The notes beneath the pieces were generated by a model, which saw only the letters and a list, made by a program, of their open reading frames with translations, made no database searches and was not told the DNA's origin. Of a DNA stretch of 64,000 nt, positions 5,017 to 52,733 are shown piece after piece. Position 1 is the stretch's first letter, and the number at the start of each line of letters is the position of its first letter. Source of the DNA: Amphiscolops sp. MND2022 (lineage: Eukaryota); NCBI GenBank assembly GCA_964187785.1, contig OZ076409.1, positions 37,388,001-37,452,000 of the forward strand, given 5' to 3'. A program made the position numbers and the translations under genes.

Positions 5017-5734
5017 TGTAACGTCCACCAGTCAACACCAAATTTTCGATGAAAAATTCGATCAAGAACCAAAAAATGTGCGAATCAAAATGGCCGACCT
5101 GGCAGGTCCTTAAAGCCCATAAAATGAAAGAAGAGAGCACGTGAACAAGAGGAACGATAGGAGATAATGAAGAGAAGAGGCAAAACAACTGATGACATGA
5201 AGATCCACACGGGACAGAATACGACGAACGCTACCCGGTGCTATGTCATCCCTGAGAAAGCAGAACCATGCTAGAATGGCGTGACTGGATCCCCGAAAAT
5301 CTACAAACAGTAACTGTGTTTTCACTTGGGGCTTATCCCCTTTTGTTTTGTTAATTTATTATAATGCATTTTGTTATTTTCCCCATGTCTGACCTTCTAG
5401 GTCGGCATTTCATGCCCATAACTGTCGAAATGACATTTTTCGAATAAACACTCTTTTGGACCTCGGAAGTATGTAGGAGATGGCAGGAATACACTAAAAA
5501 CCCTAGGATACGTTTTTACAGGCTTGTGGGGCGTGTCCGGACTTTGAGAGTGCCGGCACGTCGCCTCGGAGCTCTAACTAGAGGAGCCTCCTTAGACGTT
5601 AGAAAAGTCCCCCATGGAGACCATTTTGGGATCAAAAACTAGTGTCTAGGTATGTAGTAAGACAACGGTCTCCTGTTTAAGCATCCTAGGCATTGTCCCT
5701 CTTCCTAGATGTGCGCCGCTAGCCGGACGTTACA
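5017..5734 (+). repeat. E1 5' LTR (718 bp)
   Basis: TGTAACGTCC...GGACGTTACA (10-bp terminal inverted repeat); direct repeat of 23392-24110. Confidence 0.97.
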
Positions 5735-5750: not shown

Positions 5751-5768
5751 TGGCGACCACAGAGGGAT
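5751..5768 (+). promoter_or_regulatory. E1 primer-binding site (tRNA 3' end complement, probably tRNA-Arg)
   Basis: TGGCGACCACAGAGGGAT is the complement of ...ATCCCTCTGTGGTCG-CCA and is identical in E2. The Arg assignment is inferred from resemblance to GACCAC-type Arg acceptor stems. Confidence 0.85.
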
Positions 5769-8720: not shown

Positions 8721-9170
8721 ATGGAACGACGCGAGACTAACACAACCATAAGCGACTTCCATGCCACCAACCCTTTCAGAAGAAGAACGGAAGCCACAAC
8801 CGAACAAAACGAATGTAGATTAGATTCAGCCATAGCAGCCGTATTTTCAGAAGCTATGTCTGACTTCGTACCGAGCCAGGAGCAAAACGCGGAGATAGCC
8901 GTTGCCACTAGCCAGCTTAACTCCTCGCGAGCCTCCCCCGATAGCACCAATCTACCGGATAATACTGAGAACACTACGCAAAGAAACACCTGGCCTCCGC
9001 TGGAAGTCACTGACTACAGCTTGGAAAATTGGCCTAACTCCAACCAAGGGCCCACCAGTGAGCCCAGCATCGTTGATACTCCCAACGAACAAAACGACAC
9101 TCCAATGACTCCACGGGCGGACCCACAGACGGCGGATGTCGAAAGGAACCCCCGGGTTCCCAGGAGATGA
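8721..9170 (+). CDS. E1 Gag N-terminal segment, out of frame with the main ORF
   Basis: FHATNPF, TWPPL and NWPNSN motifs match the in-frame N-terminus of E3 Gag. The stop overlaps the next ATG (ATGA at 9167-9170). Confidence 0.7.
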   Translation: MERRETNTTISDFHATNPFRRRTEATTEQNECRLDSAIAAVFSEAMSDFVPSQEQNAEIAVATSQLNSSRASPDSTNLPDNTENTTQRNTWPPLEVTDYSLENWPNSNQGPTSEPSIVDTPNEQNDTPMTPRADPQTADVERNPRVPRR

Positions 9171-12100
9171 TCAATAGCGTAGGCGGGAATCCCTTCCGAA
9201 GCGGATATGCGCTACCGGAAGCACCGGCGAAAACGTCGAACGGGCCAGTGGAGAACTCGAAGACAAACATAACAGAGAATCCGTTAAGATACGTTTTTCG
9301 AACGCCACCCTCGGTGAGACCAAAGATTAACTATGCGAATGCGAGTCGAACGTCTCATACGCCAGACTCTCAAGCTAGCGCCGACACCAATCTCGACTCA
9401 ACAATAACCAAAGCAAGGAAGGAAATGCAAACGGTTCGAGAAGACTTTCAGAGTAGTCTGGCTCAGCTAGCTCAAGTCCAGACGAGGCTGGCGAGGGAAA
9501 ACAATGAACATGAGATGCGCGCCGACATGATAATGAGAGACATGGATGAGCTGCGAAAAGGTCTGTTGGAAATGCAAGCGGAAGGGCGACAAAATCAAGG
9601 TCGACTGGAGGCGTCCATGGCATCTCTCAATGATCTGATTAAACAGAGAGGAACTACAGCAGACGCCCGCATGGCCGAGATGTCCGCAATAATGAGGGAA
9701 AGAGACCGCCAAGCAGACGAACGCATGAAAGCAATGACAAACACGATGCAGCGCCGCGACATAGACTCCAATATCCGCATGGCGGACTTAATGATGGCAA
9801 TGCAAGATTTAACATTGGGAGTGAAAGCAATTGTGTCACAAACCCCCGCGCAGCAAGCACAAACGGCGCCGCGGATTCCCCAAAAGTATCAACAAACCGA
9901 AATGCCATCTACAAGCGAAGCCCCCCAACCTCACTATAGGACGGTGGCACAGCACACCGTGGAGCCTCCTAGGCCTCCAAAACTAGTGCCACCCGCGACG
10001 TACAGGCGTGACCTGTCTAAAGCTAGCAAGATGGCTAAAGTAACCCACACGGAGTCACGAGACGCCGGTACGGACCCGATGACTGACCCGCCGTCGTTTG
10101 ACCAGTACGCTCGCGGGACATCAACCTCCGGCGACTTTCATACAGCCGCCGACGAAACGAACATCCGCAGGACCAGCTATTATACGGCCGATTCCAGCGC
10201 AGCATTCCGCCCACCTGCGCGAACGCATACGTTCAGAGACTTTGTTCCGCGGCCAGTGGCCACCAGTACGCAGCGTAAGGTGACAAACAAGCGGAATCTA
10301 GAACAAGGCAAAGGCGAACATAGCGACATTGAAGAAATGCCCTCAATGGCAGAAGAGACCCCAGACACACCGAGAACTACCCAACGACAAGCACTAGCGG
10401 AAGCAATATCTACGGCCATGTCTAAAGGCTTGGAGCCACTGCTCGCCGCCAAAGAATCTAAAAACAAGCCCACGAAATATAGAGGAACCCGCGACGGAAA
10501 CGCAGATGGATGGATGATGTTGATGAAACGCCATTTGGAAAAAGCACACCCGAAGGCGACCCCCCTCGATAAAGCATGGACAATAATTGAGTATCTAGAG
10601 CATGAAGCCAGAGATTACATCACGAATAAGTCCGAAGCCGAGAGGGACACGGACGAAAAAGTATTCGCATTGCTGGCGCGTCGCTTTGGGACAGGCTCCA
10701 GCAAGATCCACATCCAACAGCAATTTAGAACCCGCAACCAGAATAGCGAGGAGGACTACATGCAATACCTTGACGCCCTCGAAGGCTTGCGTAGTCAGGG
10801 TTACCCCAATGAAGAGGTGACAGTTCGTCGATACGAAATCATGCAAAGATTCATTGAGGGAGTACGCAACTTCGAACTAAAAAGGAACCTCGCGCTAATG
10901 TATGCACCGGAACAATACGTGGAGACCCCGCCAACAGTGGAAGCCCTCCGCTTCACGGTACAACAATACTTACGCATGCGTGGCTCCACTCGCTCGGACA
11001 ACTACCCAATGATGCCCCCTCCACAACAACAAGCCAACATCCAACAACCTAATCAATCTCCGGTAGCACCCGCGCCTGCCCAAAAAATGCAACAACAACA
11101 GCCTCCCCAACCAGCAGCATACCAACAACAACCCATGCCACCGGCAGCCTATCGACAACAACCCCAGAGGGCGTGCTTCAACTGCGGAGACCCATCGCAC
11201 TTCGTGGTGGACTGCCCCCTGAAAGACCGTGCACGGAAGCCGGTGCAACAGCAAGTGAACTCCTGTCACACGAACCCGACTGGTAGTTGGGTGTGCCCCT
11301 CCCAGCCACATGGCTTGAACTATGATGTTTTCCCAGCATCCCTGCCAACCCAAGGCACAGTTCCCTTCTGCATCAATTGCGGCCGTACTGAGCACTCGGC
11401 GTCAGAATGCATGGCCTCGGAGCAAATGAGTCACGAAGAACAAATCCGTGCAGCGTGGTATGCTCCTGCACCAAGTCAATTCGATGGCCAGAGCCAAGAC
11501 GACCAAGTCCGGGTAATATCGATAGCGGAAGATGGGGGTCCCTCCCGACCTGTAGTAGTCACTTGTGGCGAGAAACAAGTACTCACCACGCTGGAGGCGC
11601 CCGCCCCAGATTGCACAGAAACGCTTATCTCGATACACTTGCTTCTCTCGGCAGAACAAAAAACGCGACCCACGCTGACGCTATCGCAACTAAAAGAGGA
11701 ATTATGCAGAAACGTAAAATATACTATCGCAGCGCGACCGCTCCCACATTTCACGAGAGAAGACGAAACGAAGCTGGCCCCAATACAGAAAGTCAAAACC
11801 GTTTCTCCGGTGCCGGTAGCCATTAACGTAGACGGTGTAGATATGAAATTTGACGCTATCGTAGTCTTAGAAGGTCACTTCCCTCAGGGATTGTACTTGG
11901 GCCGCCAGGAGTTGCGATGTTATAACATCGGAGTGCAAGATGCCCAGGGGGAGGCTCGCATTGACGAACGAGCATCCCTGGTGGTTGCCTTTGGCAACAC
12001 GATCCAGGAACCAATACCCTTGTACGGGATGATTGACACCGGTTCCGGTGTCTCCATTCTCTCCCTCAAGGCCTATCAAAAGATTGCATCACCCCACGCC

Positions 12101-15100
12101 TTGAGCCTCCTACCATATGACATCCAACTGTATGCCGCCAATGGTAAAACCATCAACACCATCGGAATTGCCGAAAATGTTAGCTTCCAGTTGGGCGGAC
12201 ATACCCTTAGAACCAATTTCATAGTCATTGCCGATCACCTAGGTGCCGAGGACTTCTTACTTGGCAGGAACTTCTTGCGCACTTACAACGTTCTCGTGGA
12301 CCTGACGGCCATGAGGGTCACCATACGAGACCCCAAAGCGCCACGCCACTTCAAACCCGTCCATGAGGTAAGTGACCATGAGCCATCCCTAGTGATATCC
12401 ACCGAAAGAGTAGTCCTAGGCCCTTATGAGCGCAAACTGGTGCGAGCCCAAGTTATTTCTCAAAAGCACAACGAATACCTTTTCCGAAACGTAATGATTC
12501 GCCCCCAGGGGGTATATAAACGATCCCCCTTTGTCTCAGAAGATACATTGACGTCTGTTGGAGATGAAGGCATTGTCTTCATAGCCGTACGAAACACTAC
12601 CCCCTCTGAAAACGTAACCATTCAAACCAAAACTGTCCTCGGTAAGGCAGAAACTACAAACTTTGTGTTGCAACCTGTGGCTGCCGATACGGCAACCGAA
12701 ATTGATAAACCTTTGTTTGAACAAGTTAATAGAGTTTATACCGATGAGTGGTTAAACGAAACGAGTTCCGAATATAGTTCCTTTGCTCAAAATTTTTTGT
12801 CCTCTACTGAGATATCTGAAGAAGGATTGTCGGAAAGCGAGAGGCGTGCTCAGACTGACCCACAGTTACTGAAACCTATACCAGGTCCAGACCTCTCTTC
12901 TGTCCTTTCTTCATGGGGGGAGGGAGCGAGAGATCAACTAGCAAGCGTCCTGAGCGAGTACGATGATCTTTTTATGAAACATAAAGCTGACATAGGGAGA
13001 TGCAAAATAGCCAAACATCGTATAGAACTAGAGCCGGAAGCTATCCCGCATAGAGAAGGCGCTCGGCGCATGTCCCCAGATAAGGCAGCAAAGGCTAATC
13101 AAGAGGTGCGGAATTTGCTGGCCCTTGGCCTAATTCAACCCTCCTATTCACCGTGGGCAAGCGGAATAGTCATGGTCAAAAAGAAAACAGGCGAACTTCG
13201 CTTCTGCTGTGACTTCCGACCGCTCAACGACGTAACGGTCAAGGACGCGTTCCCATTGCCCAGGATTGATGAAAGTCTATCCCGGATAGGCAATGCGAAA
13301 ATTTTCACAAGTATTGACCTAGCGTGGGCCTTCTGGCAGATACCGCTAAAGAAGCGCGATAGAAGGAAAACAGCATTTGCCTGCGAACTGGGCTTGTTCG
13401 AATGGCGGCGCATGCCCTTTGGGCTATGCAATGCATCCGCCACATTTCAGCGCTCCATTACACGAGCCCTGCAACGGATCCATCAACGACACGGGAGTGT
13501 CGTCATGGCTTACATTGACGACATAGTCATCGCCACGGAAACCATAGAAGACCACATCGTACGAATCAAGGAAGTATTCGAGTGTCTCCGAGAGGCTGGA
13601 TTCAAAATGCGTGCCGAGAAATGTGATTTCATGCGCACGGAGACAAAGTACCTGGGGCGAGTGGTGTCCTCGGAAGGCATCAGACCAGACCCCGAAGCAA
13701 TAGTCAAAATCCAAGAATGGATGCCCCCGAGAAACAGAGAGGAGCTTCAGAGCTTCCTAGGGTTCGCAAACTATTACCGGGACTTTGTACCGTTTCATGC
13801 AGCCAAGGTGCAACCCCTGCAGGAGTTACTCAAGAAGAGTCAGCATTTCCACTGGGAAATAAAACACCAAGAGGCCTTCGATGCAGTAAAGGAGGCACTA
13901 GCGAATGCGACCGCCTTGGCAGCCCCAAATGAAGACGGACGGTTCGTGCTCGATACCGATGCTAGTGCGGTAGCGATAGCTGGAATCCTGCACCAGGAAC
14001 AAGAACACAATGGGAAAACTATTTTACGGCCAATAGTCTTCGGGAGCAAGTCCCTGACAAAAACGCAACTGAACTATGGAGCACCCAAGTTGGAAATGTA
14101 CGCAGTATTTTACTTCATAGAGAAATTCCATTCGTATCTCGCAGGCCGAGAGTTCACGCTCCGCGTGGACAACCAGGCCCTGTCGTGGCTCAAAACGTAC
14201 TCCATGGACCAAGCCATGATAGGTCGCTGGATAGCCCGTCTGGATCAATATAACTTCAAAACGATCCACCGACCTCGCACACAGCATCGAAACGTGGACG
14301 GCCTCAGCAAACGGACCAACGACTATGTGCACCGAGAGAAAATCCTTGAGAAGTTACCGGAAGTGAGTGAAGGATTCAACTTCATGACCAAAGAAGACTA
14401 TGAAGCACTTCCCACCGTGCCATACTTTGACAAACACGGACGCCCAATACCAAACCATCCAGAGCTCCCGCCGGAAGCTCGAGCCCAACTCCCACTGCTG
14501 TATATCTTGGGAAAAAGGCCCAAAACGAGCTTGCAAGAAACCCCAGTGAATGATGCCCCGTGGTACCCCCAAATACAGTGGGAAGCGACACCCACCACAG
14601 ATGAGGATCACCGACCGAGTCACATCCTCAGCATCACGACCGAAGTGCCACCTGCACGCCTAGACACTGGAGAACCTGATCCTGTGCTTGAAGGGATGCC
14701 ACCCGAATGCCGAAGGCAAGCCCACGCCCTTAGAACAGTCGGAACGGAGCTGCACGAACACTTTCTGACTAGACGTGGCCTCAAGGACCTGCACCTAGCA
14801 CAAAATAGGGACGTGCACCTCCTAGCGCTTAGGAAACTCATGAACGGCGAACCACTAGAAGACACAATGTTCCCCGAAGACGTGCAGGACTTCGCGCGAC
14901 GCTACTTCCATCAAAAGAAAGACCTGCTCTTCCTGAACCCAGACGACATCCTCTGCGTCAACTACGTTCCGCAACAACGTGCGCTGCACGTGCGACCGTG
15001 CATGATAGTCATGCCACAACTATACCAACACGAGATTCTGTATAGGGCACACGACGAATCGGGACATCAGGGCGTAGGGAAGGTGCTAGCAAGAGTACAA

Positions 15101-18100
15101 GAGCGACACACCTGGCCGGGCATCAAGCGTGACATAGTCAATCACATCAAGCACTGCTTAACCTGCCAGCAGACTAAACACCCCGCCGGGAACCCCTGCT
15201 ACCCCTTGCAGAACATTAACAGCAGCAATTTCAATGACCTAGTACAATTCGACCACCTCAAACTATGCAAGACCGAATCGGGAAACACCGGTCTCTTGGT
15301 AATGATAGACCACTTCACGAAATTCGCCGAAGCTGTCCCGTGTGCCCACGACGAATATGATGCTCAAACCACAGCAAAGATCATCCTTAATAAATGGTTC
15401 GCCAGGCACGGCACTCCAGCACGCATGCAGTCCGACAATGCCACGAATTTCACAGCTGAAATCGCACAAGAGCTAATGAAGGCTTCGCAAGTCACTAAAG
15501 TGACATCCACACCAGCGCATCCCCGAGGAAATGGACTCGTGGAAAGGCAGAACCGAACGTTACTCACACTGCTCAGAGTCTACACTTCGCGACGAATGCA
15601 GGATTGGGATGAGCACGTTGATGGAATCCTCGGTGCGTACAATTCAACTAGACACGCAACCACGGGATTCTCTCCCTATATGCTCCAACATGGAGCCGAA
15701 AAATCCATTCCCTTGTCGTTCATCTACCCAGAATTTGCTGCGCGAGGATTCGACTCCAAAGAGGAATTCGTAGAGCACCTTCTAGCCAGACAACAGGAAA
15801 TCCATGAACTCGTCAGAAGAAATACACACCAAGCACAGCTACGGCAAAAGCTGAAGTTTGACCGCCACCTGAAGGCCAAAGCGCACGCCGTAGGCGATGC
15901 GGTGTGGGTATTCTGCCATATCATACCCAAGGGTGGCACCCGCAAGCTGATTCGCGCATGGCGTGGACCCCACAAGGTGACTGACGTGTTGCAGGACGGA
16001 CGATTATATGTGCTAGACACTGGCCAAAAGGTCCATTACGAAAGATTAAAAAAGCACGTGCCTGCCCCTTGGGACTGGGCCGCACACCAGCCCTTTGGGC
16101 CGGATCAAAACGTAGCCATCATTGCCGATCCGTACGTAGAAGAAAGCAATGAGGAGATAGCGTCCGACATCTCTCAAGACTCTTTTCTACCGGAACAACT
16201 TCCGGAAGCATCGTTCGAAATGGAACCAACAGGATCGATTCCACCTCGTACCATTCAGACTCGTACCCAAACGGCACTCGAGCAAGGAATACCCCGAAGA
16301 AGATTCAGTCACTTCGGATACCCCTCTGACTCAGATTCCGAAAGAGAAGAAAATGAGCCGCCGATCCAGAGCCCACCACCGCCAGTAGTGTTCCCCGACT
16401 TGGACGACCTAGAACCACTGTACTCCGACCAGGAGGAAATTCAGCCAGCCGTACCTACAAGTCTGATACCATCACCCTCAGGGACCTCGGCCCCACTACT
16501 ATCCAATCCGTCCCTGACGGATACCCTGAGTAACTTTCCCTTGTTTGGCCCCCAATTGGAGGACCCAATCGACCCGATAGAAATTAAACCAAAGTCAGGA
16601 ACTGAAGACGAAGAAGAGATAACCTATCACAGTCCAAGCCATTGCTCAACACAACCCGATACCACGAATCGCAGAGGACGGCCTCGAGGCCGACCACCAG
16701 GTCGAGGACGACCCCGCGCCATACCATCCAGTAGAACCACGACATCGTCGCGAACCCAAACCGCACGATCCAGAAGAGGCCCTAGGACAAGAATGAGCAC
16801 TCGTGCACCCCCTCGAAGGCTAGACCAAGCAATGACTCTGCCAGAAATACCCGAAAGCCAACAACCACCGGAGGTCCAGAATTCAGAACCGAGACCATCA
16901 TCGCAAACATCACGATATCAACTGCGAGCTAATAGAGCACCACGATACAAGTGTGGAACCTGTGGTTCCCGCAACTGTAGTTGCGTCAAGCATCTGACTC
17001 GCGATTCACCGGACAACCGATTGGCCCGGGGAGCGGTAGTCCCTGCCAGGGATCTCCTGATAGCCAGGACACATTGTCACCCACAACATGAGATCTTAAC
17101 CGTACAAGCCCAGCGAGAAAAAGTGGAGACACCCCCGCTAGTACACCATTTGATCATCACGGTAGAAAAAACTTTCACTAGTGTGGAACGGGAAGTGATA
17201 CCACCGCTCGAAGAAACACAAATAGCAATGCACGCGACATCTCCCTCCGACTGCCCAACTTACCGATTCAAGGAATGGACACCACCCCATCGAGGCGGTC
17301 TAGAATTCACCCTACATGCCATCATACCGCCCTTGCCACCCTCGATGACGTTCGGCGAGCTAGCGAAAGAGGATAGTAGCACGGAGATGATTCGCTGTAT
17401 CACTGCACACCAACTGTGGGAGAAATATCGCATTGCCTCCCCGCCGGGAGACATATACCAGCCCACCAATGGATGGTGGCTACTCGTCACCTCTCTAGAC
17501 GCAACGACATTGGTATCCCCCACAACTCTATTAATGTGCTTAGAAAGCTTGCGTACTGTAACAGAACCCGAGAACACGCTCTGTTTCCACATGGCCGACA
17601 TTTATCGTGGCAAGTTCCTAAGCCAACATTGGCTACAATTAATAGCGGTCATCTTCTGCCGACAGGCGAAGATACACTTCTTGGATCGACAATCTTATAC
17701 ACCGGAAAAACCCGTCACAGTTAGCGAAGCACTCTCGATAGTACACGATTGGTCATCTACCAACATGGGAGATAGACCGCTACGCCGAACCGTCTGGGAA
17801 GACCGAAAAGCAATCTTGCAGCATTTAGCACCCCAACCCACTGATGATCAGAGCAATACCACCGGCAAATGGCTCATAACCCAGCCCAAAACCAGACCGA
17901 ATTACCTACCTTGGATAACTTATGACAATACAGATATCCTGCAGGCACCTGGCACTCTGATACTATGCTGCCCTGCGGATTTGCTCTCTTACTCTGCCAC
18001 GATCCGTTACGTTATTCGCGAATACGGTCAAGAAAACATATTTCGCCTAAGACCGTCAGTTGGCACCGCAATTCGCTTAGTCCGCTCGCCAACTGCACCC

Positions 18101-18388
18101 TGGAATAACGAAATCTTCCTTCTATGTACCAGAGCATCGAACAAGCATCCACTCTTACATGAAGTACTCCATGCGTGTCTGACAAATTTGATAACCCAGC
18201 TCCATCGAAACCACATTACCAGAATCCACTTGCCCATCTATGATCCCGAGCGATCGATGAACCTCCTACCAGCCTGGTACGCCACGCTACGCGACCACTT
18301 TGCAGACCACAATATTGCAATAATTTTGCACGATCGCGTCTATGTCACGATAGCATCGGTTACCTCAGCCAATTTTGGCGGTAGTTAA
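9167..18388 (+). CDS. gag-pol: E1 Gag-Pol polyprotein (3073 aa): capsid, 2x CCHC, pseudo-protease + protease, RT, RNase H, integrase, long C-terminal tail
   Basis: CFNCGDPSHFVVDC and CINCGRTEHSASEC knuckles; MIDTGSG and LLGRNFL protease motifs; MPFGL and YIDD RT motifs; DTDAS/KLEMYA/RVDNQAL RNase H; HHCC, D..D(35)E and WRGPH integrase motifs. Confidence 0.96.
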   Translation: MINSVGGNPFRSGYALPEAPAKTSNGPVENSKTNITENPLRYVFRTPPSVRPKINYANASRTSHTPDSQASADTNLDSTITKARKEMQTVREDFQSSLAQLAQVQTRLARENNEHEMRADMIMRDMDELRKGLLEMQAEGRQNQGRLEASMASLNDLIKQRGTTADARMAEMSAIMRERDRQADERMKAMTNTMQRRDIDSNIRMADLMMAMQDLTLGVKAIVSQTPAQQAQTAPRIPQKYQQTEMPSTSEAPQPHYRTVAQHTVEPPRPPKLVPPATYRRDLSKASKMAKVTHTESRDAGTDPMTDPPSFDQYARGTSTSGDFHTAADETNIRRTSYYTADSSAAFRPPARTHTFRDFVPRPVATSTQRKVTNKRNLEQGKGEHSDIEEMPSMAEETPDTPRTTQRQALAEAISTAMSKGLEPLLAAKESKNKPTKYRGTRDGNADGWMMLMKRHLEKAHPKATPLDKAWTIIEYLEHEARDYITNKSEAERDTDEKVFALLARRFGTGSSKIHIQQQFRTRNQNSEEDYMQYLDALEGLRSQGYPNEEVTVRRYEIMQRFIEGVRNFELKRNLALMYAPEQYVETPPTVEALRFTVQQYLRMRGSTRSDNYPMMPPPQQQANIQQPNQSPVAPAPAQKMQQQQPPQPAAYQQQPMPPAAYRQQPQRACFNCGDPSHFVVDCPLKDRARKPVQQQVNSCHTNPTGSWVCPSQPHGLNYDVFPASLPTQGTVPFCINCGRTEHSASECMASEQMSHEEQIRAAWYAPAPSQFDGQSQDDQVRVISIAEDGGPSRPVVVTCGEKQVLTTLEAPAPDCTETLISIHLLLSAEQKTRPTLTLSQLKEELCRNVKYTIAARPLPHFTREDETKLAPIQKVKTVSPVPVAINVDGVDMKFDAIVVLEGHFPQGLYLGRQELRCYNIGVQDAQGEARIDERASLVVAFGNTIQEPIPLYGMIDTGSGVSILSLKAYQKIASPHALSLLPYDIQLYAANGKTINTIGIAENVSFQLGGHTLRTNFIVIADHLGAEDFLLGRNFLRTYNVLVDLTAMRVTIRDPKAPRHFKPVHEVSDHEPSLVISTERVVLGPYERKLVRAQVISQKHNEYLFRNVMIRPQGVYKRSPFVSEDTLTSVGDEGIVFIAVRNTTPSENVTIQTKTVLGKAETTNFVLQPVAADTATEIDKPLFEQVNRVYTDEWLNETSSEYSSFAQNFLSSTEISEEGLSESERRAQTDPQLLKPIPGPDLSSVLSSWGEGARDQLASVLSEYDDLFMKHKADIGRCKIAKHRIELEPEAIPHREGARRMSPDKAAKANQEVRNLLALGLIQPSYSPWASGIVMVKKKTGELRFCCDFRPLNDVTVKDAFPLPRIDESLSRIGNAKIFTSIDLAWAFWQIPLKKRDRRKTAFACELGLFEWRRMPFGLCNASATFQRSITRALQRIHQRHGSVVMAYIDDIVIATETIEDHIVRIKEVFECLREAGFKMRAEKCDFMRTETKYLGRVVSSEGIRPDPEAIVKIQEWMPPRNREELQSFLGFANYYRDFVPFHAAKVQPLQELLKKSQHFHWEIKHQEAFDAVKEALANATALAAPNEDGRFVLDTDASAVAIAGILHQEQEHNGKTILRPIVFGSKSLTKTQLNYGAPKLEMYAVFYFIEKFHSYLAGREFTLRVDNQALSWLKTYSMDQAMIGRWIARLDQYNFKTIHRPRTQHRNVDGLSKRTNDYVHREKILEKLPEVSEGFNFMTKEDYEALPTVPYFDKHGRPIPNHPELPPEARAQLPLLYILGKRPKTSLQETPVNDAPWYPQIQWEATPTTDEDHRPSHILSITTEVPPARLDTGEPDPVLEGMPPECRRQAHALRTVGTELHEHFLTRRGLKDLHLAQNRDVHLLALRKLMNGEPLEDTMFPEDVQDFARRYFHQKKDLLFLNPDDILCVNYVPQQRALHVRPCMIVMPQLYQHEILYRAHDESGHQGVGKVLARVQERHTWPGIKRDIVNHIKHCLTCQQTKHPAGNPCYPLQNINSSNFNDLVQFDHLKLCKTESGNTGLLVMIDHFTKFAEAVPCAHDEYDAQTTAKIILNKWFARHGTPARMQSDNATNFTAEIAQELMKASQVTKVTSTPAHPRGNGLVERQNRTLLTLLRVYTSRRMQDWDEHVDGILGAYNSTRHATTGFSPYMLQHGAEKSIPLSFIYPEFAARGFDSKEEFVEHLLARQQEIHELVRRNTHQAQLRQKLKFDRHLKAKAHAVGDAVWVFCHIIPKGGTRKLIRAWRGPHKVTDVLQDGRLYVLDTGQKVHYERLKKHVPAPWDWAAHQPFGPDQNVAIIADPYVEESNEEIASDISQDSFLPEQLPEASFEMEPTGSIPPRTIQTRTQTALEQGIPRRRFSHFGYPSDSDSEREENEPPIQSPPPPVVFPDLDDLEPLYSDQEEIQPAVPTSLIPSPSGTSAPLLSNPSLTDTLSNFPLFGPQLEDPIDPIEIKPKSGTEDEEEITYHSPSHCSTQPDTTNRRGRPRGRPPGRGRPRAIPSSRTTTSSRTQTARSRRGPRTRMSTRAPPRRLDQAMTLPEIPESQQPPEVQNSEPRPSSQTSRYQLRANRAPRYKCGTCGSRNCSCVKHLTRDSPDNRLARGAVVPARDLLIARTHCHPQHEILTVQAQREKVETPPLVHHLIITVEKTFTSVEREVIPPLEETQIAMHATSPSDCPTYRFKEWTPPHRGGLEFTLHAIIPPLPPSMTFGELAKEDSSTEMIRCITAHQLWEKYRIASPPGDIYQPTNGWWLLVTSLDATTLVSPTTLLMCLESLRTVTEPENTLCFHMADIYRGKFLSQHWLQLIAVIFCRQAKIHFLDRQSYTPEKPVTVSEALSIVHDWSSTNMGDRPLRRTVWEDRKAILQHLAPQPTDDQSNTTGKWLITQPKTRPNYLPWITYDNTDILQAPGTLILCCPADLLSYSATIRYVIREYGQENIFRLRPSVGTAIRLVRSPTAPWNNEIFLLCTRASNKHPLLHEVLHACLTNLITQLHRNHITRIHLPIYDPERSMNLLPAWYATLRDHFADHNIAIILHDRVYVTIASVTSANFGGS

Positions 18389-18719
18389 GAACACGTCTCG
18401 CTCTCTTCTTGGCAGATCAGGCCACTGGCCTTTTGCATTGCCTTTCGTAATTTTGAAGCGCCTTAAAATTTTAACAAAGCCGCGCCGATAAGCGCAAATT
18501 TTAGTAATAATCACTAGAAACTTTTTAACCTCGTATTTGTGTGTTCGTCCTAAAAAGTTTGACTGCCCACCCGTTTATGTAATGTTTTATCTCCAACTGT
18601 GACTTGTTTTTCAGTTTTGTCCTGTTGCCTCGCCTCTGCGCGGCCCCCCTACTTATCACGCCAAATCAGTCTTGCCATCACAATCTTCGGTGCTAAATAT
18701 TCCTTTATCATCGTTTCCA

Positions 18720-21700
18720 ATGGACCCATCTGCGCGACACCGCCTGCCTACACCCCAGAACGCTGCGCGTGCCCAACCATCCATAAGGAACGATCCACCT
18801 CCAATGATGAGCGAAATAGATGGTCGAGTCGACCAACTAGCTCTTGTCCAAGACACTCTACTAAACGGAGTGACACCCACAATGATCGCTGGCTTTGCCA
18901 TGATCATCGCCCAAACCCAAGCCCAGGCAGAGTACCCTGATGTTAGCTTCACCATCACCAGCCGAGTCGGCCCGATAGAACGCTCTGCCACTTTTCGCGA
19001 CGGTACCTGGCAAGGGTATGACTTGACCCACAGCCTCATAGATCCTCGCTCCCACTTAGTCTATGGAGAGCCTACTAGGCCTCCCATGGACCAAGAACGA
19101 TCACTCCGCATTTCACAATCAGCACTACAGACGCAAACTACGACCCCGTTGCCCTCACCGCACCCGGTGCAATTCAGCTGCACACTGCCAATCATGCCAC
19201 CCCCAGTGCTAACACCGCCCATGCCCCTGGCTTCGGAAGGCATTCGATTACTCACCACCCCATCTTCTACCTTCATGCCTCCATCTACCTTTCAGGGGGG
19301 AGGGGTGCAAGTAGACAATACAACAAGTGCTGCCCTGAGCGAAGAACAGCCCAGGAGAACGGTGACGTTCAAGGACTCATATGAAGAATTAACTCAAACG
19401 TCCTCCAGAACCGAATCACAAGTCTCGGAACCTCTACAAGTCTCAGAACCGGCCAGTCTAGTAGGCTTCCAAATGGACCCACAATTCCGAGAACGTCAGC
19501 GAGAACAACAAAAGGCTGAAAGTAAGGCGGCCAACACTGTGGTAGACCTCCGGGAGAAAATTAAAGCTGGAAAGCGAGCCAGAGAGGCAACCACGCAAAG
19601 TAGACAATCGAGCTCGACCAGTATCTCGCAACCCACGTCTACCTCACCCACACAACCAGAAATAAGGAGACCTAGAATAACGCACGAACTCCTAACACAT
19701 ACAGAAAAACGGCAGCTGGATATCACTGCACGCGACGCACTGCGTCTCCAGCGGGAAATACCAACCACAACGTCACCAGAAGACCCTCTACGACAGAAAT
19801 TCGAGATCGCTACGGGAACTGGGGACCTCGCCACAAGGCAGAAAATAGAGAAAGCCACAGTGGGAGTACTCTACAATCGCCCCGTCAAGAAACCCGTGTT
19901 TACTCGAGACGGATGCCCCCCATGGTTTAACCGCATGCGAGCAGAACTGGAGAGAGTAAACTCATCATACATGCGTGTTCCTGACAACTTCCTCCGACAG
20001 CGCCCTGGCCGCTTCGACGAAGACCGCTTGCGAACTAAAAACTATGCGAGGGACCCCATTACAATCCTGCCCATGGGAAAGGACCTTTTACAGAAAACCA
20101 GAATAGCCTTCTTCGTCGACTCGACGATGAAGTCTTCATTCAACTCCCACAATACCCTCATGGACGTCAGAATACTGAATATGCCCTGTACAACACTGAA
20201 CGAAATGGCAGAGGTGACCGATAAAATATTCACCCAAGCGGGAACAGAGACTATCCCACTACCTCCGTTGTTAGTATATTCGAATGTGATAGACCACCTC
20301 GCTCTGCGAGGGACCCTGGAATTCTTCCGGCCAGACCATGAAAGGTTTACCGAGGGGTTCATCACCGACGAAGTTACCAACTACGTGGAGACGATGGCGA
20401 ATATTGCCCAAGCTATGCGCAGAAGGAAAGCTACCACTGGAACGGTATTTATGTCACCTCCAGGCTACGTGCACCTTCCCCGGACCCTTCAGCAATTCTT
20501 GTACCTAATAATGGAGGCAGCGTACGCAAGGGATCTGGCTTTCTACATTGTGGCCCCTAATTTACGCATCAGCAATAATAGCTGGCGCCCCTGTGAAGCC
20601 TCATACCCAGCCTTCATTGCTGAAGTCTCAAAGGCCCTTCAATCATACGTCGGTTACCGCGGCAATTCCCAAATGGTGGCAGATGAAGCAACAGCATTCG
20701 ATTATGGGATGGAAATGGCTCGTCGATCATTGAACGAGCGTGGAGACCGAATCGTGAATGATCCAAATGAAAGTGAACGCAATAACCTGGTGGATAACCT
20801 CTGGTTTGAACGCCGGGACGAATCGACTATAGACGAGAAAACGCATGAGCCCAAGTTCCACAAGGAACTCACGAGTCTGATGAAGGAAACCGAAACGATT
20901 CAAAGTGATAGAAAAAATTCCTCTATCTTCCCTATAGCACAAATATCATTGGACGCGGAACCTGGGCAAAGATCACCCACATTAGCCATGTTGTTGATAC
21001 TAGCTCAAGATATTGTACGAAGAAATATTCAAGAGCCGACACACACGTACCAAACATGGCACGATCAACTACGAGAACCTCTGGGCCAAGTCGCGGATCG
21101 ACTAGGCATAACATTTCCCGTATTTCTCCACAATATCTCTCCCTTCTGGCTTCCTTCCCTGGTACAGGCCGAGTACGGCCTGGATGAGCAGCGAATGCGA
21201 CTATACATGGAGGCCATGGAAAGAGCGACCGTTAGTGAAGTGCTAGCGTATCTGATGGCCGTGGGGTTGACCATGATGTACCGAGGACCGTCAGCCCTCA
21301 TACAAAAGTTCGTGCTCAACAAGGGAGGCTCAGCCCTGTTCAGCTTCCTAGTCTTTTCGCAGAATCAAAGAAGTTGGATATCTGCGCTCATTGAAACTCT
21401 GGACCCAGCGGGTTCCTTAAAGTTAAAAGCGCAACTAAACTTAAACATTCAAGCACTTCTAGTGTGGATTTACTCCACCTGGGTCAATGTCTCTGGCATT
21501 ATGCATCCTCTGGATGAGTGCCCAGCTATTAACCGAGACCCCAATCAGCTTCCAGGGTTCCTGTTCCCTGCACAAATTGCAACGTTGATGCTCGTGGAGA
21601 CAGAGGACCTGATACCCCTCATTGCTCCTGTGATCTGGCCTATCTTCGGCGCAGTTATGGCCCTGCGCTATCCAACGCAGGCCCTGCGAGTGGCAGCGGT

Positions 21701-22805
21701 GAGCCCATCCCTCTCGATTCTACACTTCGTGACCTCTAATGGGCCCCTTCAGGGTCCCACCTATCAATCAGTGATACACAGCTTTGCCAACTTGCGACCT
21801 CCCATGGCATACACCGTAATCAAAGACCGCCAACAAGTGGAGCACAACTATCTTACGTTGATCAAGGCGCGAGCACGCAGCTCGCTCCCTTTGCCAATGG
21901 AAATCCACCCGGTAGTTTGGCTACATACCCCCCTCAATCCAAATAATGGAGCAGTGGCGACGTTTGACGGGTGGGACGTGCCAATTGTCCTGCGTATCTT
22001 GAGAGCAATTATCCAAAGATTGGGTGGTCGTAGAAAAGGAGAAGAACCTACTAGGTTATTATATCCCTATGCGTGTGACACTTCCAGAGTATATTGTGCA
22101 AGAACAGAACCCCGTGAGCATACCGCCAGAATCTTAAATACCATTACGTGTTGGGCCCAGCCAGAACTCGTGGACCTCGCTATACACCAGACCTTCCAAC
22201 AGCTGCCAACAACCATTCCAACAGTAGCAAAAGAACCAAGCAGGAAAGATTTGCCCGTGAATACTGACGTTCGCAGCAACCCGCGTATGGCGCTAGAGAT
22301 ATTCGTACGTCTGCATGGTCTCCAGCGAGAACGCACTCGAGCTGTGGGCGAAGAATACGCTAGGGGAAAACGAACGTTCAAACAACTATTCACCCAATAT
22401 GGTCACCAAGAATTAGCGGACGGCCTGCCGAACTTGGAGTCAATCGAAGCCATCCCAGGGATCAGCGATTTGAGCGAAGCTGCCTCTGGCAGCTCTCGCA
22501 CCGTCCTTCCCACACCCCACATCATTCAAGACACCGATGAATTATTGGTGGAAGGGGTACAAGATGATGTGCCAAGCGTCATGCCACCATCAGAGGAACC
22601 TATGACTGACAACAACTTCACGCTCTCTGATGCCACTACTCCTGTAAGAGACGAAGTGGAGACCAATATCTTGAACATGGAGGCAGCGGACATAGAGTCA
22701 GAGCTCAACAACTTACTGACCATAGATGAAGAATACCAAAATACGGTGAACGCCATGGGCAGCACCTCCATGCAAGAAGCCCCACAGAACCAGCTGTTGG
22801 AGTAA
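18720..22805 (+). CDS. E1 ORF2 (~1360 aa from ATG): extra ORF with SGNH/GDSL-hydrolase-like domain, function unknown
   Basis: Intact 4-kb ORF between pol and the 3' LTR, with clear homologues in E2 and E3. Motifs IAFFVDST / VRILNMPCTTLNEM / LLVYSNVIDHL / VFMSPP. Confidence 0.85.
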   Translation: MDPSARHRLPTPQNAARAQPSIRNDPPPMMSEIDGRVDQLALVQDTLLNGVTPTMIAGFAMIIAQTQAQAEYPDVSFTITSRVGPIERSATFRDGTWQGYDLTHSLIDPRSHLVYGEPTRPPMDQERSLRISQSALQTQTTTPLPSPHPVQFSCTLPIMPPPVLTPPMPLASEGIRLLTTPSSTFMPPSTFQGGGVQVDNTTSAALSEEQPRRTVTFKDSYEELTQTSSRTESQVSEPLQVSEPASLVGFQMDPQFRERQREQQKAESKAANTVVDLREKIKAGKRAREATTQSRQSSSTSISQPTSTSPTQPEIRRPRITHELLTHTEKRQLDITARDALRLQREIPTTTSPEDPLRQKFEIATGTGDLATRQKIEKATVGVLYNRPVKKPVFTRDGCPPWFNRMRAELERVNSSYMRVPDNFLRQRPGRFDEDRLRTKNYARDPITILPMGKDLLQKTRIAFFVDSTMKSSFNSHNTLMDVRILNMPCTTLNEMAEVTDKIFTQAGTETIPLPPLLVYSNVIDHLALRGTLEFFRPDHERFTEGFITDEVTNYVETMANIAQAMRRRKATTGTVFMSPPGYVHLPRTLQQFLYLIMEAAYARDLAFYIVAPNLRISNNSWRPCEASYPAFIAEVSKALQSYVGYRGNSQMVADEATAFDYGMEMARRSLNERGDRIVNDPNESERNNLVDNLWFERRDESTIDEKTHEPKFHKELTSLMKETETIQSDRKNSSIFPIAQISLDAEPGQRSPTLAMLLILAQDIVRRNIQEPTHTYQTWHDQLREPLGQVADRLGITFPVFLHNISPFWLPSLVQAEYGLDEQRMRLYMEAMERATVSEVLAYLMAVGLTMMYRGPSALIQKFVLNKGGSALFSFLVFSQNQRSWISALIETLDPAGSLKLKAQLNLNIQALLVWIYSTWVNVSGIMHPLDECPAINRDPNQLPGFLFPAQIATLMLVETEDLIPLIAPVIWPIFGAVMALRYPTQALRVAAVSPSLSILHFVTSNGPLQGPTYQSVIHSFANLRPPMAYTVIKDRQQVEHNYLTLIKARARSSLPLPMEIHPVVWLHTPLNPNNGAVATFDGWDVPIVLRILRAIIQRLGGRRKGEEPTRLLYPYACDTSRVYCARTEPREHTARILNTITCWAQPELVDLAIHQTFQQLPTTIPTVAKEPSRKDLPVNTDVRSNPRMALEIFVRLHGLQRERTRAVGEEYARGKRTFKQLFTQYGHQELADGLPNLESIEAIPGISDLSEAASGSSRTVLPTPHIIQDTDELLVEGVQDDVPSVMPPSEEPMTDNNFTLSDATTPVRDEVETNILNMEAADIESELNNLLTIDEEYQNTVNAMGSTSMQEAPQNQLLE

Positions 22806-23355: not shown

Positions 23356-23391
23356 GTTTGCCGAGGACGACAAACTACGGCCCGGGGAGGA
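23356..23391 (+). promoter_or_regulatory. E1 pre-LTR hairpin and short polypurine tract
   Basis: GTTTGCCG-AGGA-CGACAAAC stem-loop, then CCCGGGGAGGA abutting the TG of the 3' LTR; nearly identical in E3. Confidence 0.75.
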
Positions 23392-24110
23392 TGTAACGTC
23401 CACCAGTCAACACCAAATTTTCGATGAAAAATTCGATCAAGAACCAAAAAAATGTGCGAATCAAAATGGCCGACCTGGCAGGTCCTTAAAGCCCATAAAA
23501 TGAAAGAAGAGAGCACGTGAACAAGAGGAACGATAGGAGATAATGAAGAGAAGAGGCAAAACAACTGATGACATGAAGATCCACACGGGACAGAATACGA
23601 CGAACGCTACCCGGTGCTATGTCATCCCTGAGAAAGCAGAACCATGCTAGAATGGCGTGACTGGATCCCCGAAAATCTACAAACAGTAACTGTGTTTTCA
23701 CTTGGGGCTTATCCCCTTTTGTTTTGTTAATTTATTATAATGCATTTTGTTATTTTCCCCATGTCTGACCTTCTAGGTCGGCATTTCATGCCCATAACTG
23801 TCGAAATGACATTTTTCGAATAAACACTCTTTTGGACCTCGGAAGTATGTAGGAGATGGCAGGAATACACTAAAAACCCTAGGATACGTTTTTACAGGCT
23901 TGTGGGGCGTGTCCGGACTTTGAGAGTGCCGGCACGTCGCCTCGGAGCTCTAACTAGAGGAGCCTCCTTAGACGTTAGAAAAGTCCCCCATGGAGACCAT
24001 TTTGGGATCAAAAACTAGTGTCTAGGTATGTAGTAAGACAACGGTCTCCTGTTTAAGCATCCTAGGCATTGTCCCTCTTCCTAGATGTGCGCCGCTAGCC
24101 GGACGTTACA
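23392..24110 (+). repeat. E1 3' LTR (719 bp)
   Basis: Matches the 5' LTR except for one extra A in a homopolymer (by eye). Confidence 0.97.
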
Positions 24111-26355: not shown

Positions 26356-26371
26356 TGGAGAACACATTTTA

Positions 26372-38501: not shown

Positions 38502-38724
38502 AACTTTTGTTTTTCCCTTTTTTTTGTCGTTTTGTTTTTTGTCCGCTCGATTAAGTTTAGTGAATCGACACGGAGTTTATTTGAAACTAATACGTTACCT
38601 TTTTCTTCAATGTTAATGTGTGATATTCTATTACTTTCCCTGGTATTACCCTCAAAATGACCTATGGTGTTGCCCTACTATCAAGTGTGCTACAATCGAC
38701 CTGCACTCTTTCAGAATTGCCGTC

Positions 38725-41700
38725 ATGAACCAAGATAACGATGGAAGCAACAACGTCCCTCCAAGGTCTTCAGATGACTCTCCTGCCTTGGGGCAACGCG
38801 TTTACGACACTGCGCGTGTCCAGCGTACCCCACAAATTGCTTTTATTCGAGACAGACTCGACCAAGGTCTGTCGCCAGCTACAGTTGCCGGGGTGGCGGC
38901 AATCATAGCCCAGATGGAGTCGCAAATGCAAGCCCCTATGCTGACGATATCTATTACTTCGGGCTTTCCTTGGTTCCAACGATCCATGACATACCAAGAT
39001 GGAGTGTGGCACGGCCATGATCTTACACATCACTTTACGGATGATCGTGCAGCGATCTCATACAGTCCTGCGAATGGCGGAGTCCATCAGACCAGATCTC
39101 TACAGATCCCTTCTTGCCCGCCTCCACCTCCACCGCCACCTCCTGCATCAACACCACAAACAGTAGTGCGTGCGCGCACTCCTGCTCCTATGGTACCTAA
39201 CTTGCCCAATCAATCAATGACGGAGCAAGCAGTTATCTCAGCACTGCAAGCAGTAGCTATCAACCCCAATTACGCTGATTTCATGCGATCCATGGAGCAG
39301 TGTTGGCCTGAACTGCGCCGAATTGCTCTGCCCACTGTCACTATTCGCAACGAAAATGTCACTTCGACCCAAACAAGTCAAGATGCCATCACTATTCCTC
39401 ACGTCAATCCTCTGTCTGATCAGCCAGGACACTCCCGCACCGTGACTGCAGAGCGCAGTCGTTCGCCTTCCCGCTCTTCTCAAAAGGGGGGAGGAGAGAG
39501 CCGCCCTGCCTCCAGAAAACGCAACGACCCTTCCCCAACAAAAAAGAGTGCTCAACAACCACTAACTGCCCGTGACAGCCCCTCGAGCAAGCCACCGCCC
39601 GACAAAAAGATCTCCAACGAGAAGGCCACAACCAAAACGCCAAACCAAACAAAATCAAAAGTGTCGGAAGCATCCGTGCTTCCCTCACCCCAATCACAAC
39701 CAGACGCAACAGGCGAACAACAAGGACTGCCGCAGCCACCATCCACGCAGTCTACAACACGCGAGTCGCTGGCTCAACGAGCGACTCCTAAGCCTTCCAC
39801 ATCAAGACAGCCACAAACGGAGCAAACTGTGGGTTATCAAGGCACCCCTGAATCTCAGCGAACTGTCAAGGACATAATGGGTGATTACCCAGGATTGAAG
39901 GTAACCAACAGTGGTCCAACTGGAACACCACTCCGCAAACAGGCAATTCAACACCCAACTAAGAGGACCTTTACGAAACAACCGACGTACCTGAGTCCAA
40001 TGCAAAACTCAAAGGGCACACTGATCACCAAGGACTCCCGACGTATCTGGGAATCGGCAGTTATAGTATCGCCCGAATGGCTGTTTGAAAAGAACATGTG
40101 TCCTCCGAATGACGAAGAGCATGCGAAATTGAAGAAGGCGAATGTACCTGTATTCATAAATCGTCCAATCCGCCCCGACCACACCCCTACCAATGAGCCG
40201 CCATGGCTAGGGAAGGCAATGAATATGCTGCCAAACGTAGAAGACAATTACTTGGACGCCCTCAACATTGACCTTCGTGGGCAATTCGCTGACCGATATT
40301 TCCTCAATGCTGGAGAGACATTCGAGGTCAACCCACGGTACGCCCGTGACCTCGAAGCCCAACTACCAATGCCGAAAGAAAGGTTGCAGCGTGCGCGCTT
40401 CGCCTTACTTATAGATTCGACATTCCTCAAAAATATCCCCATTGACAATGTGCTGTCAGACGTGATGGTTTTCACTCTACCGCTGTCACGTATTCCCGAG
40501 ATGGCCGAAGTGTTGGTCACCATGTTTGACCCTGAGATGACGGGGACCTTCAAAGAGCCACCCCCACGCAGAGTGATCATCAGTAACGTTTTCGATCACA
40601 TGGCCTGTGAGGGACTAATGGCCCAGATCGCGAACGTTGAAATCATAAATCCAAGTCCAGCACAGCGAACAACAGTACGCAACGCAGCACTGAACATGGC
40701 CCGAGCCATGGAAAAAGCCCAAAATATCTTAAAGGATAAACTCAACGTGCCAGCCCTGTTTGTGACACCCCCAGGTTTCTGCCAGTGGCCTCCCGTCTTG
40801 CAGAGATTTATCTACATGGTAACAGAAATTTGCAAATGTAGACATTGCGATCTGCGCGCCCAATATGCGGATCAGCTCCAACGACTTTCGTCCCTCCTGG
40901 CTTTCCTACATGGGGTATGTTGCCTCGGTGTCTAAAGTGCTACAGTCAGTGGAAAAGACAGGGAACGCGCAGCTGACAATCGATGATGCCATCTATTTTG
41001 ATCACGGCACTCGTATGGGCTTGTTAGTATTCAACAACAACGGAGAAAGGCGAGTTCCAGAACCTAGTACGGCTGAATGTGAGGCAATTCGCCTGAATAA
41101 CTGGATAGAGCGCGCGCGCTCCTCCGGTGGAAAGACTTGCATTAAAACTGATCTTGCGGAAGTCACTGCCATAATGAGCAAAGTCCCCAGCGACCGAGAA
41201 GTAGAACGAGCCATCCCGCGAGTTCAATTTGCCCAGGACCTCACAATTGACCAATTATCAGTGGGAATGAAGTACATTGCTGCAAAATTGACGAGCGAGA
41301 CTCAGGCTGAAATCCAAGCCTTCAGCAGCACCTACGACGCCTGGTACCAGCGGCTACAAACTACCACCGTAGCAGACATTGCAAAAGAACTTGGGATGTC
41401 AACCGACCAATTTGCCATCTGTTTGGGATTGGGTTGGAGTCCCGATGTTATTCGAGTTGAGTTCGACTTAGACGAGCACTGGTTGATCGAAATCAGCAAG
41501 ATTATCGGTACCATGCAAGTAAACGAACTCTTTGCACTGATGCTCACTTTCGGGCAGAAACGCTTCGTAGCTGGCCCAATGATGATATTGACCGACCTGG
41601 TTACCGAGTGTAATCTGGAATGGCTATTTTCATATTTAGTGATTGCGCGAGGGAATATCTCAGGCCTCACCGCTTTAGCCAAGCTGCTACAACGAAAAGA

Positions 41701-43084
41701 CGCTCAGGATTATCCCGCTCACCTGGAGCGCATGACAACTTCGTTATATCACTGGATATACTGCAGTCTGGTCTTTGCCTCGGGACTTTTCGTGGGCGTA
41801 GATAAGCACCAACCATTATATGACGGACGTCAGCTGGTGACCGAGGTAGCTGGATTTCTGACACCTAACCAGCTGGCAGATTTCACTTTGGCTGAAGTCG
41901 AAGACCTTGTACCGGTGTTAGTAACCGTGCTAACTCCGATATTTGGCCCAACCGGGATACTTCGCTATCCCACCAAGCCTCTGCGACTGGCCTCGGAGAC
42001 ACTAACAGTATCCATCCTGACTTTTCTGAAGAATGTAAAACCGCACAACTATCAGCAGATGCTTGAACGTGGGCTGTTTCTGCTAGTACCCCGCATGTAT
42101 ACCACCATAAAGAATGAAACGCAGCAAGACGAAAACCTGGCCGGTATTCTCAAAGCCCGGACAAAGAAGGCGTGCCCTTTACCTCGCGAATACGGCCCGG
42201 TGAATTGGTACAATTCGCCCTTAGATCACCTTGGAATCCCACAGCGATTCAATTGGAGTTTCGCACACCTCAGGAAGTACGTGACCGAATGCGTGCAAAC
42301 CATGGGCGGTCACACAAATCAGGAGTATAATTTTCAGATGATCAAGCTTCCAGCCAGGTACTGGCGAGGACCCATCGGTTATATCCGGGCTAAGCCAATC
42401 AGCATGGTCGAGAAGGGCTTTGATGAGCAGTACGCCTATCGCGATCACTACAAACTAGGCGTGTGGATGTCAAGGACCCTGGAGGAACGCCAAGGGCGCC
42501 TAAAAGGCTTGATCATCCCCCCACTGACAATGCCTGTTTGGAATCCAGAGGCGAGGGTCACTATGGGAAGCGACATGCCAGCGGAGACCTGCTACCACGT
42601 CATGGAACTGCTGAGTGATCCCCTCGGACCCGAATGGGAAGCCTCCAGGCAAATTATAGAACATGCAAACAGGGACAACTGGTCCAGAGCCTGCGGGCTC
42701 TGGGGCCGACCTGATCTACGCCCGAAACTCAGTGCCAAGCAGAAACGACCCATTGCCACCCGCAATAGACCGCTAGATCTACCACACCTGTTTAATGCCA
42801 GTAGATTGGATGTGCAGATCCCAATCTCCACGTCGACCACAAGTTCTGCCAATGTTAGCGGCTCAGCCAATGCAGCGCAAGAACATTCGCCAGAAGCCTC
42901 AACTCCCGTAGCCGCAGAAGATGGCCCTAGTGGCTCAAACACGACTCCCAGGACCCATGAAACTGCCAGCGCCGAACCAAAGCCAGTCCTGCGAGAAGGA
43001 AATATGCGAAGAGGATCCCTGTCCGAACTACAACCGAAAGCCGACGTCTCCCCCAGAGCGCGTCACTTCTCCGCCACCCAGTAA
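38725..43084 (+). pseudogene. E2 ORF2 homologue with a frameshift near 40840-40865
   Basis: ORFs 38620-40935 and 40865-43084 give FALLIDST, VIISNVFDHM, LFVTPPG and ICAPNMRISSNDFRP, collinear with E1 ORF2. Confidence 0.85.
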
Positions 43085-51200: not shown

Positions 51201-52410
51201 CAATCGATGCTTTTTCTAGGTTCTTTACGTCTTCTGGATTGCCTTTGCTGGTGGCGGTATCGAATTTTTGCACGTCCAAATCTGAGTCTGGATTTCCTGA
51301 CTTGACTTCTCTCTGCAGACGCGCCGCGTCTCTTGCAGTAATGTCATACTGCCGTGCCTCTGTCTGCGACAAGAGTTCATCAGAAAATCGCACTCTTCTA
51401 GCCTCCGGCTGTTGTATGGGCGAGGGATTCGGGCTTGAGTTTGTTGCATCTGCATTGGCTAAGTCTCTGGCTCTTTTCTTTTGGGCCAGTTGCTCGATCT
51501 TGTTCTGCTCCTTTTTGTTTAGCACATCTCGGAGGTCGATGGGGGCCTTGGCTGTTTGTCTCTCTGCTTTCTCTTGCTCCTTTTGTTGTTCGTGCAAGTC
51601 AGGATCGGCTTGGAAACCTATTAGGTGTTGAGGGTCCGACGACGTTGAGGGTAATAAGGCGTCATATGAGTCTAGAGACCCGATCACCTCTGTCATAATG
51701 GGTACGTCGAATGGATTTCGCATCGTTATGACTCTCGGTTTCTGGCTCATCCTTGTATTTTCGGTGGTGTTGTCGGTATTCTGTGCGTTCGTGCGCGCTT
51801 CATTTGCTTCTTCTACCCCTTCCCCCCTGAAAGATGAAGGGAGCATGAGTCCAGTGTTGGTGTCTTCTAAGCGTCTTACACTGATTGAGCTTGATGGTGG
51901 TGGCGACGATAGCATTGGTGATGGCGTCGTGGGTAGAATACAGACGAATTGCTGTGTAGCTGTTGGTTGAGTTGGCTGATTGTCTATGGCACTTTCGGGG
52001 GCAGTGATTGGTATCGCTACGGATATTTGCGATGGATTTGGTCGCGCTTGCTGTTGCTCCATGGAGGGCCAATTAGGTTCATTGTAAGGCAGACTTGATC
52101 TATGGTCATCGAAGTGATGAGTGAGGTCATGGCCGTGCCATGTTCCGTTGTGGAGTTTGGCTGTGCGGCAGTATGAGCCAATTCCAATGGAGATGGACAG
52201 CGTGAAGTCCGGGTGTGTTTGCAGAGTTTGCAGTTGAGCGGTCAGCATAGCTATTCCGGTGGCTAGTGTTGGCGAGACGTCTAGTTGAGCGTTCGTCTGG
52301 GTGAGACCAAGCTGGTCGGTTCGAGTTTGGGGCTCTGCGACAGGCAGCGAGGACGAGGAGGATACTGGCCTGGGTGGACATGGAAGTCGGCTTCGGGATG
52401 ATTGATCCAT
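48214..52410 (-). pseudogene. E3 ORF2 homologue with a premature stop near 51073
   Basis: ORFs 51073-52527 and 48214-51009 are in the same frame and collinear with E1 ORF2 (IALLIDST, LLIYSNVIDHL, IFVSPPG). Confidence 0.88.
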
Positions 52411-52733
52411 CAGAGAAAATGGTAGCACCTTTAATGGAGTGTAGTTGTTTACAAACTGCAAATTATCAGTGGTAGTGCTGGTGGTGTCGCGTGCTGGCGA
52501 ACAGGCAGGACTAAACTGAAAAAACAATCAGCATTGATTTAGGCTAAAAAGATTTTTTAACATGAACGCAAGAAGGAACACACGGTATACAATTGACCTA
52601 GTAAAAACACTTAACAAAGACAGATTCAGCGGTCTTCATTAAAATTAGTTTCCAACATTGGTTAAAACAGAATGTAGGTTAAAAAGGAAGGAAAATAGCC
52701 TTTCAAGTGGCTATCTTTTGGTGCCACTGCGAT

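Follow-up and report, generated by a model that had tools for sequence, protein, structure and literature searches.

The window analysed here, a stretch of 64,000 nucleotides from Amphiscolops sp. MND2022 (assembly GCA_964187785.1, contig OZ076409.1, positions 37,388,001 to 37,452,000, forward strand), contains three large Ty3/gypsy elements. In element 1 a long open reading frame (ORF), ORF2, is located between pol and the 3' long terminal repeat (LTR). It carries a domain that, according to its structure model, very probably has the SGNH-hydrolase fold, and only the Ser is left among its five catalytic positions, the other four being changed. We conclude that this domain is probably a pseudo-enzyme version of an already known retroelement SGNH cargo, in an unusual giant gypsy lineage. 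The parts of ORF2 are given below, with residues numbered in the stop-to-stop frame P0001, where the Met is residue 40 (the preliminary description, which placed the domain at residues 460-650, counted from the Met at 18720).

18720..22805, + strand: ORF2 of element 1, 1361 aa, in env position.
18825..19112, + strand: small region of conservation near the N-terminus (residues 75-170), containing W-x-G-[HY]-D.
19947..20093, + strand: helical extension ahead of the core (residues 449-497), part of which aligns with the N-terminal part of platelet-activating factor (PAF) acetylhydrolase.
20094..20663, + strand: core of the SGNH fold (residues 498-687), predicted as five strands with helices between them.
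21609..21665, + strand: hydrophobic 19-mer, conserved and rich in Pro (residues 1003-1021), which may be a membrane anchor.

The SGNH assignment proposed in the preliminary description is borne out by a structure model and a fold search: far from lacking an SGNH or flavodoxin-like fold, the domain is predicted as a three-layer alpha/beta/alpha flavodoxin-like fold matching SGNH structures. The structural alignment to the PAF acetylhydrolase Ib alpha subunit (1bwp) covers model range 44-274. Since 1bwp, 3p94 and 8a2n tied within 1 Z unit in the fold search, no donor can be named. The OSK domain of Oskar ranked 46th of 50, below true enzymes. The Foldseek and profile comparisons suggested along with the assignment gave a less favourable picture that weighs against it. 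Foldseek returned no match at E<=0.001, the structure of ZfL2-1 (4c1b) being a weak match at rank 14 with probability 0.44, and against canonical SGNHs profile-profile comparison (hhalign) reached just 8% probability, a weak result (score 24.5, versus 22.5 for the reversed control and 20.5 for the best of 40 block shuffles). Pfam gave no family at E<=1 for P0001 or for the SGNH domain, the cut-off of Lipase_GDSL_2 (PF13472) not being reached, and no PDB sequence match was found for the domain.

The domain is not a product of chance: across some 285 aa, identity among the three families amounts to 37-62%, and matches at E<=0.001 were obtained with 207 database representatives. Pooled ratios of nonsynonymous to synonymous differences (pN/pS) in the SGNH domain were 0.093 (29 unique sequences from 30 loci) and 0.077 (24 unique from 28 stop-free loci, 1 of 29 being dropped), values that are biased low, and to that extent count against our reading, because loci were picked for the best protein match and the pairs depend on one another. 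Comparing element 1 with element 3, an independent test, gave a pN of 0.25 and a saturated pS of 0.91. Judged from these sequences, the domain is kept by purifying selection.

The catalytic positions were put in register from secondary structure, the block definitions in Table 2 of PMC10792757 and the canonical alignment, not from coordinates; the alignment rows include fragments and damaged copies. The relevant blocks and motifs, with ORF2 of the two other elements, are:

From 20103, + strand: IAFFVDST of element 1, Ser codon 20121-20123.
20115..20126, + strand: block I, where V-D-S-T stands instead of G-D-S; the nucleophile position is Ser507.
20166, + strand: VRILNMPCT of element 1.
20187..20189, + strand: block II Gly position, reading Cys (Cys or Leu in homologs).
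20268, + strand: LLVYSNVIDHL of element 1.
20283..20297, + strand: block III, N-V-I-D-H in place of G-x-N-D.
20445, + strand: VFMSPPG of element 1.
20577..20591, + strand: block V, variable acid position, Arg662 at the His position, then Pro.
20580, + strand: SWRPCEASY of element 1, Arg codon 20586-20588.
38617..43084, + strand: ORF2 of element 2, occupying two frames that overlap; SGNH domain from ~40399.
48214..52527, - strand: ORF2 of element 3, SGNH domain about 50960-50380.
From 50952, - strand: IALLIDST of element 3.

All the motifs of element 1 were found in their proposed places, in one + strand frame. That they are common to all three elements is true in part: blocks II and V of element 2 differ (TLPLSR, FRPSWLSY). 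Element 3 lies on the minus strand. The Asn proposed in an 'N.PCT' motif did not hold up either, T being found in 35 of 56 rows. Element 2 has a frameshift within the SGNH domain, near 40825-40840, and ORF2 of element 3 is interrupted before the domain by an in-frame TAG (51073-51075).

Block I reads [VIM]-D-S-T, with Ser507 in 98/102 rows and V, I or M instead of the preceding Gly. The oxyanion Gly of block II is present in 1/114 rows at position 529 and in 0/115 at 528. Block III has become N-x-[ILF]-D-H: the oxyanion position 563 is I, L, F or M (Asn in 0/108), and Asn561 (102/108), Asp564 (103/109) and His565 (101/107) are conserved, of which Asn561 and His565 are new. In another register, Asn561 may be the oxyanion residue. 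The His position of block V is Arg in 108 of 117 rows and His in 2, and the acid position is Asp in 6/116. It had been noted earlier that the Ser is kept and the His replaced by Arg, which is correct and, for the Arg, invariant across sub-families; the extent of the change was understated, as Gly has also been lost from blocks I, II and III, along with the Asn of block III and the acid Asp. When 76 sequences were grouped into 16 clusters at 60% identity, the majority residue was Arg in 16/16, D-S-T in all 8 clusters covering block I, and never the block II Gly (0/11) or the oxyanion Asn (0/13). The altered site is also present in relatives without a close copy in the host genome (P0202, P0231, P0232, P0132 and P0169; the best identity of P0232 in that genome is 28%), and ORF2 therefore likely occurs in further species.

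These substitutions make it improbable that the domain is a classical esterase, since a His-to-Ser change ends hydrolysis by the ZfL2-1 esterase (PMC3905857) and, among 28 rows of Table 2 in PMC10792757, the block V His is missing only in the non-enzymatic OSK. It is likely a pseudo-esterase. The function that we favour, with a probability of about 0.4 for the whole model, is that of a lipid or membrane tether. Ser507, Thr508, Asn561, Asp564, His565 and Arg662 would form an anion or head-group pocket, in which the kept Ser-Thr and the invariant Arg in the base's place could be a plausible cradle for phosphate or carboxylate. The pocket rebuilt in this way may bind an acidic lipid head group or an acyl ligand without cleaving it. 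The SGNH domain would face the cytoplasm because ORF2, leaving aside any spliced-on leader, has no signal peptide at its own N-terminus (hydropathy of the first 35 residues in 5 proteins; best 9-mer mean Kyte-Doolittle value 0.49). The hydrophobic segment 1003-1021, which sits 340 residues downstream of the domain, would hold ORF2 at the membrane, where it could tether the element's Gag particle or ribonucleoprotein (RNP) for assembly or transport. This proposal draws on the lipid binding of ZfL2-1, which needs no catalysis, and on the candidate membrane anchor. Several points weigh against it. The liposome binding of ZfL2-1 is ascribed to surface charge, and the ORF2 domain, far from being basic, is near neutral, with net charges of -3 to +7 across 12 proteins. 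As for the hydrophobic segment, it is rich in Pro, is modelled below a predicted local distance difference test (pLDDT) value of 55, and may be a buried core. Finally, an invariant Ser with a nearby conserved Asp-His also fits a rebuilt enzyme.

Such an enzyme could use Ser507 as nucleophile, with either Arg662 or His565 (the latter together with Asp564) as activator, for slow hydrolysis or acyl transfer on a lipid or glycan. Ser507, Asp564 and His565 are as conserved as catalytic residues, and the SGNH superfamily tolerates the single loss of acid, Gly or Asn (Table 2 of PMC10792757). In ORF2, however, substitutions affect the acid and the base as well as both oxyanion residues, Asp564 is the Asp that block III normally has as a structural residue, and OSK stands alone among those 28 rows in lacking the block V His, so that renewed catalysis appears distinctly unlikely. 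OSK itself suggests a dead SGNH domain that binds RNA of the element or of the host and, together with the long disordered stretch at the N-terminus, assembles RNP granules in which the genome is protected or localised. We consider this rather unlikely, as OSK has lost the Ser that ORF2 keeps and ranks below true enzymes in the fold search, the ORF2 domain is neutral, and no binding of oligo-(A) RNA was seen with the ZfL2-1 esterase (PMC3905857).

A neutral charge, together with many conserved residues outside the pocket and a place in a large protein of several domains, one of them helical and unmatched, would suit a scaffold or counter-defence factor, whose surface binds Gag or a host silencing or innate-immunity protein and whose pocket residues are structural. 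The high copy number reached by the families also agrees with it: the host assembly (1.07 Gb) gave 3060 first-look candidates for the domain of element 1 and 2759 for that of element 2, sets that may overlap and are not copy numbers. The invariant polar residues nevertheless cluster at the four active-site blocks, suggesting a small-molecule pocket, and purifying selection is unlike the fast change usual for host-antagonist surfaces; we regard this role as unlikely. A neutral relic, or a look-alike Rossmannoid fold unrelated to SGNH hydrolases, would account for the missing Pfam and PDB sequence matches and the weak hhalign score, but this explanation is already largely refuted and retains very little probability.

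The elements that carry ORF2 are organized as follows:

5017-24110, + strand: element 1, LTRs 99.86% identical.
5017..5734, + strand: 5' LTR of element 1, TGT...ACA, with a 3-bp target-site copy directly before it.
5735-5764 and 26356-26385: regions resembling a primer-binding site (PBS) in elements 1 and 2.
5751..5764, + strand: PBS-like TGGCGACC, 16 nt past the LTR end.
9077..18388, + strand: gag-pol ORF of element 1, a single frame of 3103 codons stop to stop, first ATG 9167.
16940-18385 and 37131-38498 (+ strand), 52737-54206 (- strand): post-integrase pol region.
18604..18614, + strand: predicted splice-acceptor-like pyrimidine tract and CAG upstream of ORF2; similar in element 3.
23392..24110, + strand: 3' LTR of element 1, 99.86% identical to the 5' LTR.
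25623-44831, + strand: element 2.
46998-47722, - strand: 3' LTR of element 3, whose 5' end is outside the window.

With LTRs and the order protease, reverse transcriptase, RNase H, integrase, the elements belong to Ty3/gypsy; in element 1 a CCHC motif precedes these domains and a further C-terminal region follows them. In the host assembly, 148 candidates for the element 1 domain and 150 for the element 2 domain were scored, all 96-100% identical. Among the 30 best loci, open frames of at least ~1,400 codons were found in 22 (family 1) and 13 (family 2), and in 13/13 LTR pairs examined the ORF2 match, computed from match positions, lies 14.6-15.0 kb past the 5' LTR start. The elements are very large and recently active, and ORF2 is still open in many young copies.

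Target-site duplications of LTR elements, including Ty3/gypsy, are usually 4-6 bp. Here they are 3 bp in 12 of 13 family-1 LTR pairs and 4 bp in one (two of the 13 pairs have common flanks), short of that range. The copies lie at 5014-5016 and 24111-24113 for element 1 and at 25620-25622 and 44832-44834 for element 2. This is an anomaly inside Ty3/gypsy and no ground for exclusion from the group; no report of 3-bp target duplications was found in the literature searched, and they hint at an undescribed clade. The PBS-like site TGGCGACC lies 16 nt off the 5' LTR end, not abutting it, in 13/13 family-1 copies and in element 2. The leader from LTR to gag is ~3.4 kb, and a 218-codon frame (149 aa from ATG) at 8514-9170 (+ strand) overlaps the gag-pol start. 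Pol runs ~800 aa beyond integrase, with a disordered linker, a C-x2-C-x4-C-x-C motif and a conserved ~370-aa region. The post-integrase region is 42-66% identical across an aligned 480 aa and gave no Pfam or PDB sequence match; by eye, its conserved part looks like one or two macro-domain-type folds. A separate repeat, inverted and 71% identical, lies left of element 1 (4457-4878) and right of element 2 (44832-45240).

No description of ORF2 was found in the literature searched, the coverage of which was incomplete; esterases are not mentioned in the main text of the eLife survey of env-carrying gypsy elements (PMC13524379), and passages of PMC7250577 and PMC10741241 added nothing decisive. 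Like retroviral and errantiviral Env and the sORF2 fusogens (PMC13524379, PMC11952523), ORF2 is an accessory ORF of an LTR element. It differs from them in having no signal peptide, few Cys and no convincing fusion-protein fold match (residues 40-409 and those beyond about 965 were not reliably modelled), and it is far longer than the short transmembrane sORF2. An RxKR at residue 1254 is present in element 1 only. A helical domain without structural match adjoins the SGNH domain. The sORF2 case demonstrates that env-independent cell-to-cell transfer exists (PMC11952523). ORF2 might even be a retroelement transmission protein of a third type, besides Env and the small sORF2/FAST fusogens. Facing the cytoplasm, it would combine a lipid-sensing pseudo-esterase with a helical domain (possibly a new fold) and a membrane anchor, and would carry the particles of a distinct giant gypsy clade, marked by 3-bp target duplications and an offset primer site, from cell to cell or through membranes. 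We hold this reading to be improbable.

Among SGNH-bearing retroelements, the bdelloid rotifer Vesta LTR elements likewise carry a GDSL/SGNH domain, ORF3, in the env position of a gypsy-type element, and a membrane role has been proposed for it (PMC5408684). As described there, Vesta ORF3 keeps its catalytic residues and has no transmembrane or coiled-coil segments, whereas the altered domain of ORF2 lies inside a 1,361-aa multi-domain ORF with a conserved hydrophobic segment. The Penelope-like Athena-L elements, a different retroelement class, also bear an SGNH domain that has lost catalytic residues; these dead GDSL derivatives were grouped with PC-esterases (PMC5408684), and the likeness is drawn from their description. 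ZfL2-1 ORF1p, from the CR1/L2/RTEX long interspersed nuclear elements (LINEs), shows that a retrotransposon SGNH can bind acidic lipids independently of catalysis (PMC3905857; PDB 4c1b), but unlike ORF2 it is an active enzyme with an intact triad in a gag-like ORF1. Oskar OSK (PDB 5a4a; PMC10792757) is a non-enzymatic SGNH fold that, like ORF2, has a hydrophobic residue at the oxyanion Asn position, and the PAF acetylhydrolase Ib alpha subunit, 11% identical to the ORF2 domain, is an active cellular enzyme. In the host genome itself, a genome-wide family search revealed another gypsy family (L111-L118, e.g. L111:1480-2004), 30% identical in integrase, with a canonical SGNH domain that has all catalytic residues and directly follows integrase, in the same frame in L114. 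LINE-like elements (L119, L123, L137; assigned by eye) have an ORF1 with an intact SGNH domain, after which comes an ORF resembling an endonuclease. This gypsy family and these LINEs are natural controls within the same genome. Capture of SGNH domains has occurred repeatedly, in LINEs, Penelope-like and LTR elements, and the question at stake is whether these domains serve by catalysis or by binding. A lineage that keeps the domain under strong selection without its catalytic set is a clean test case; it argues that selection can act on binding alone.
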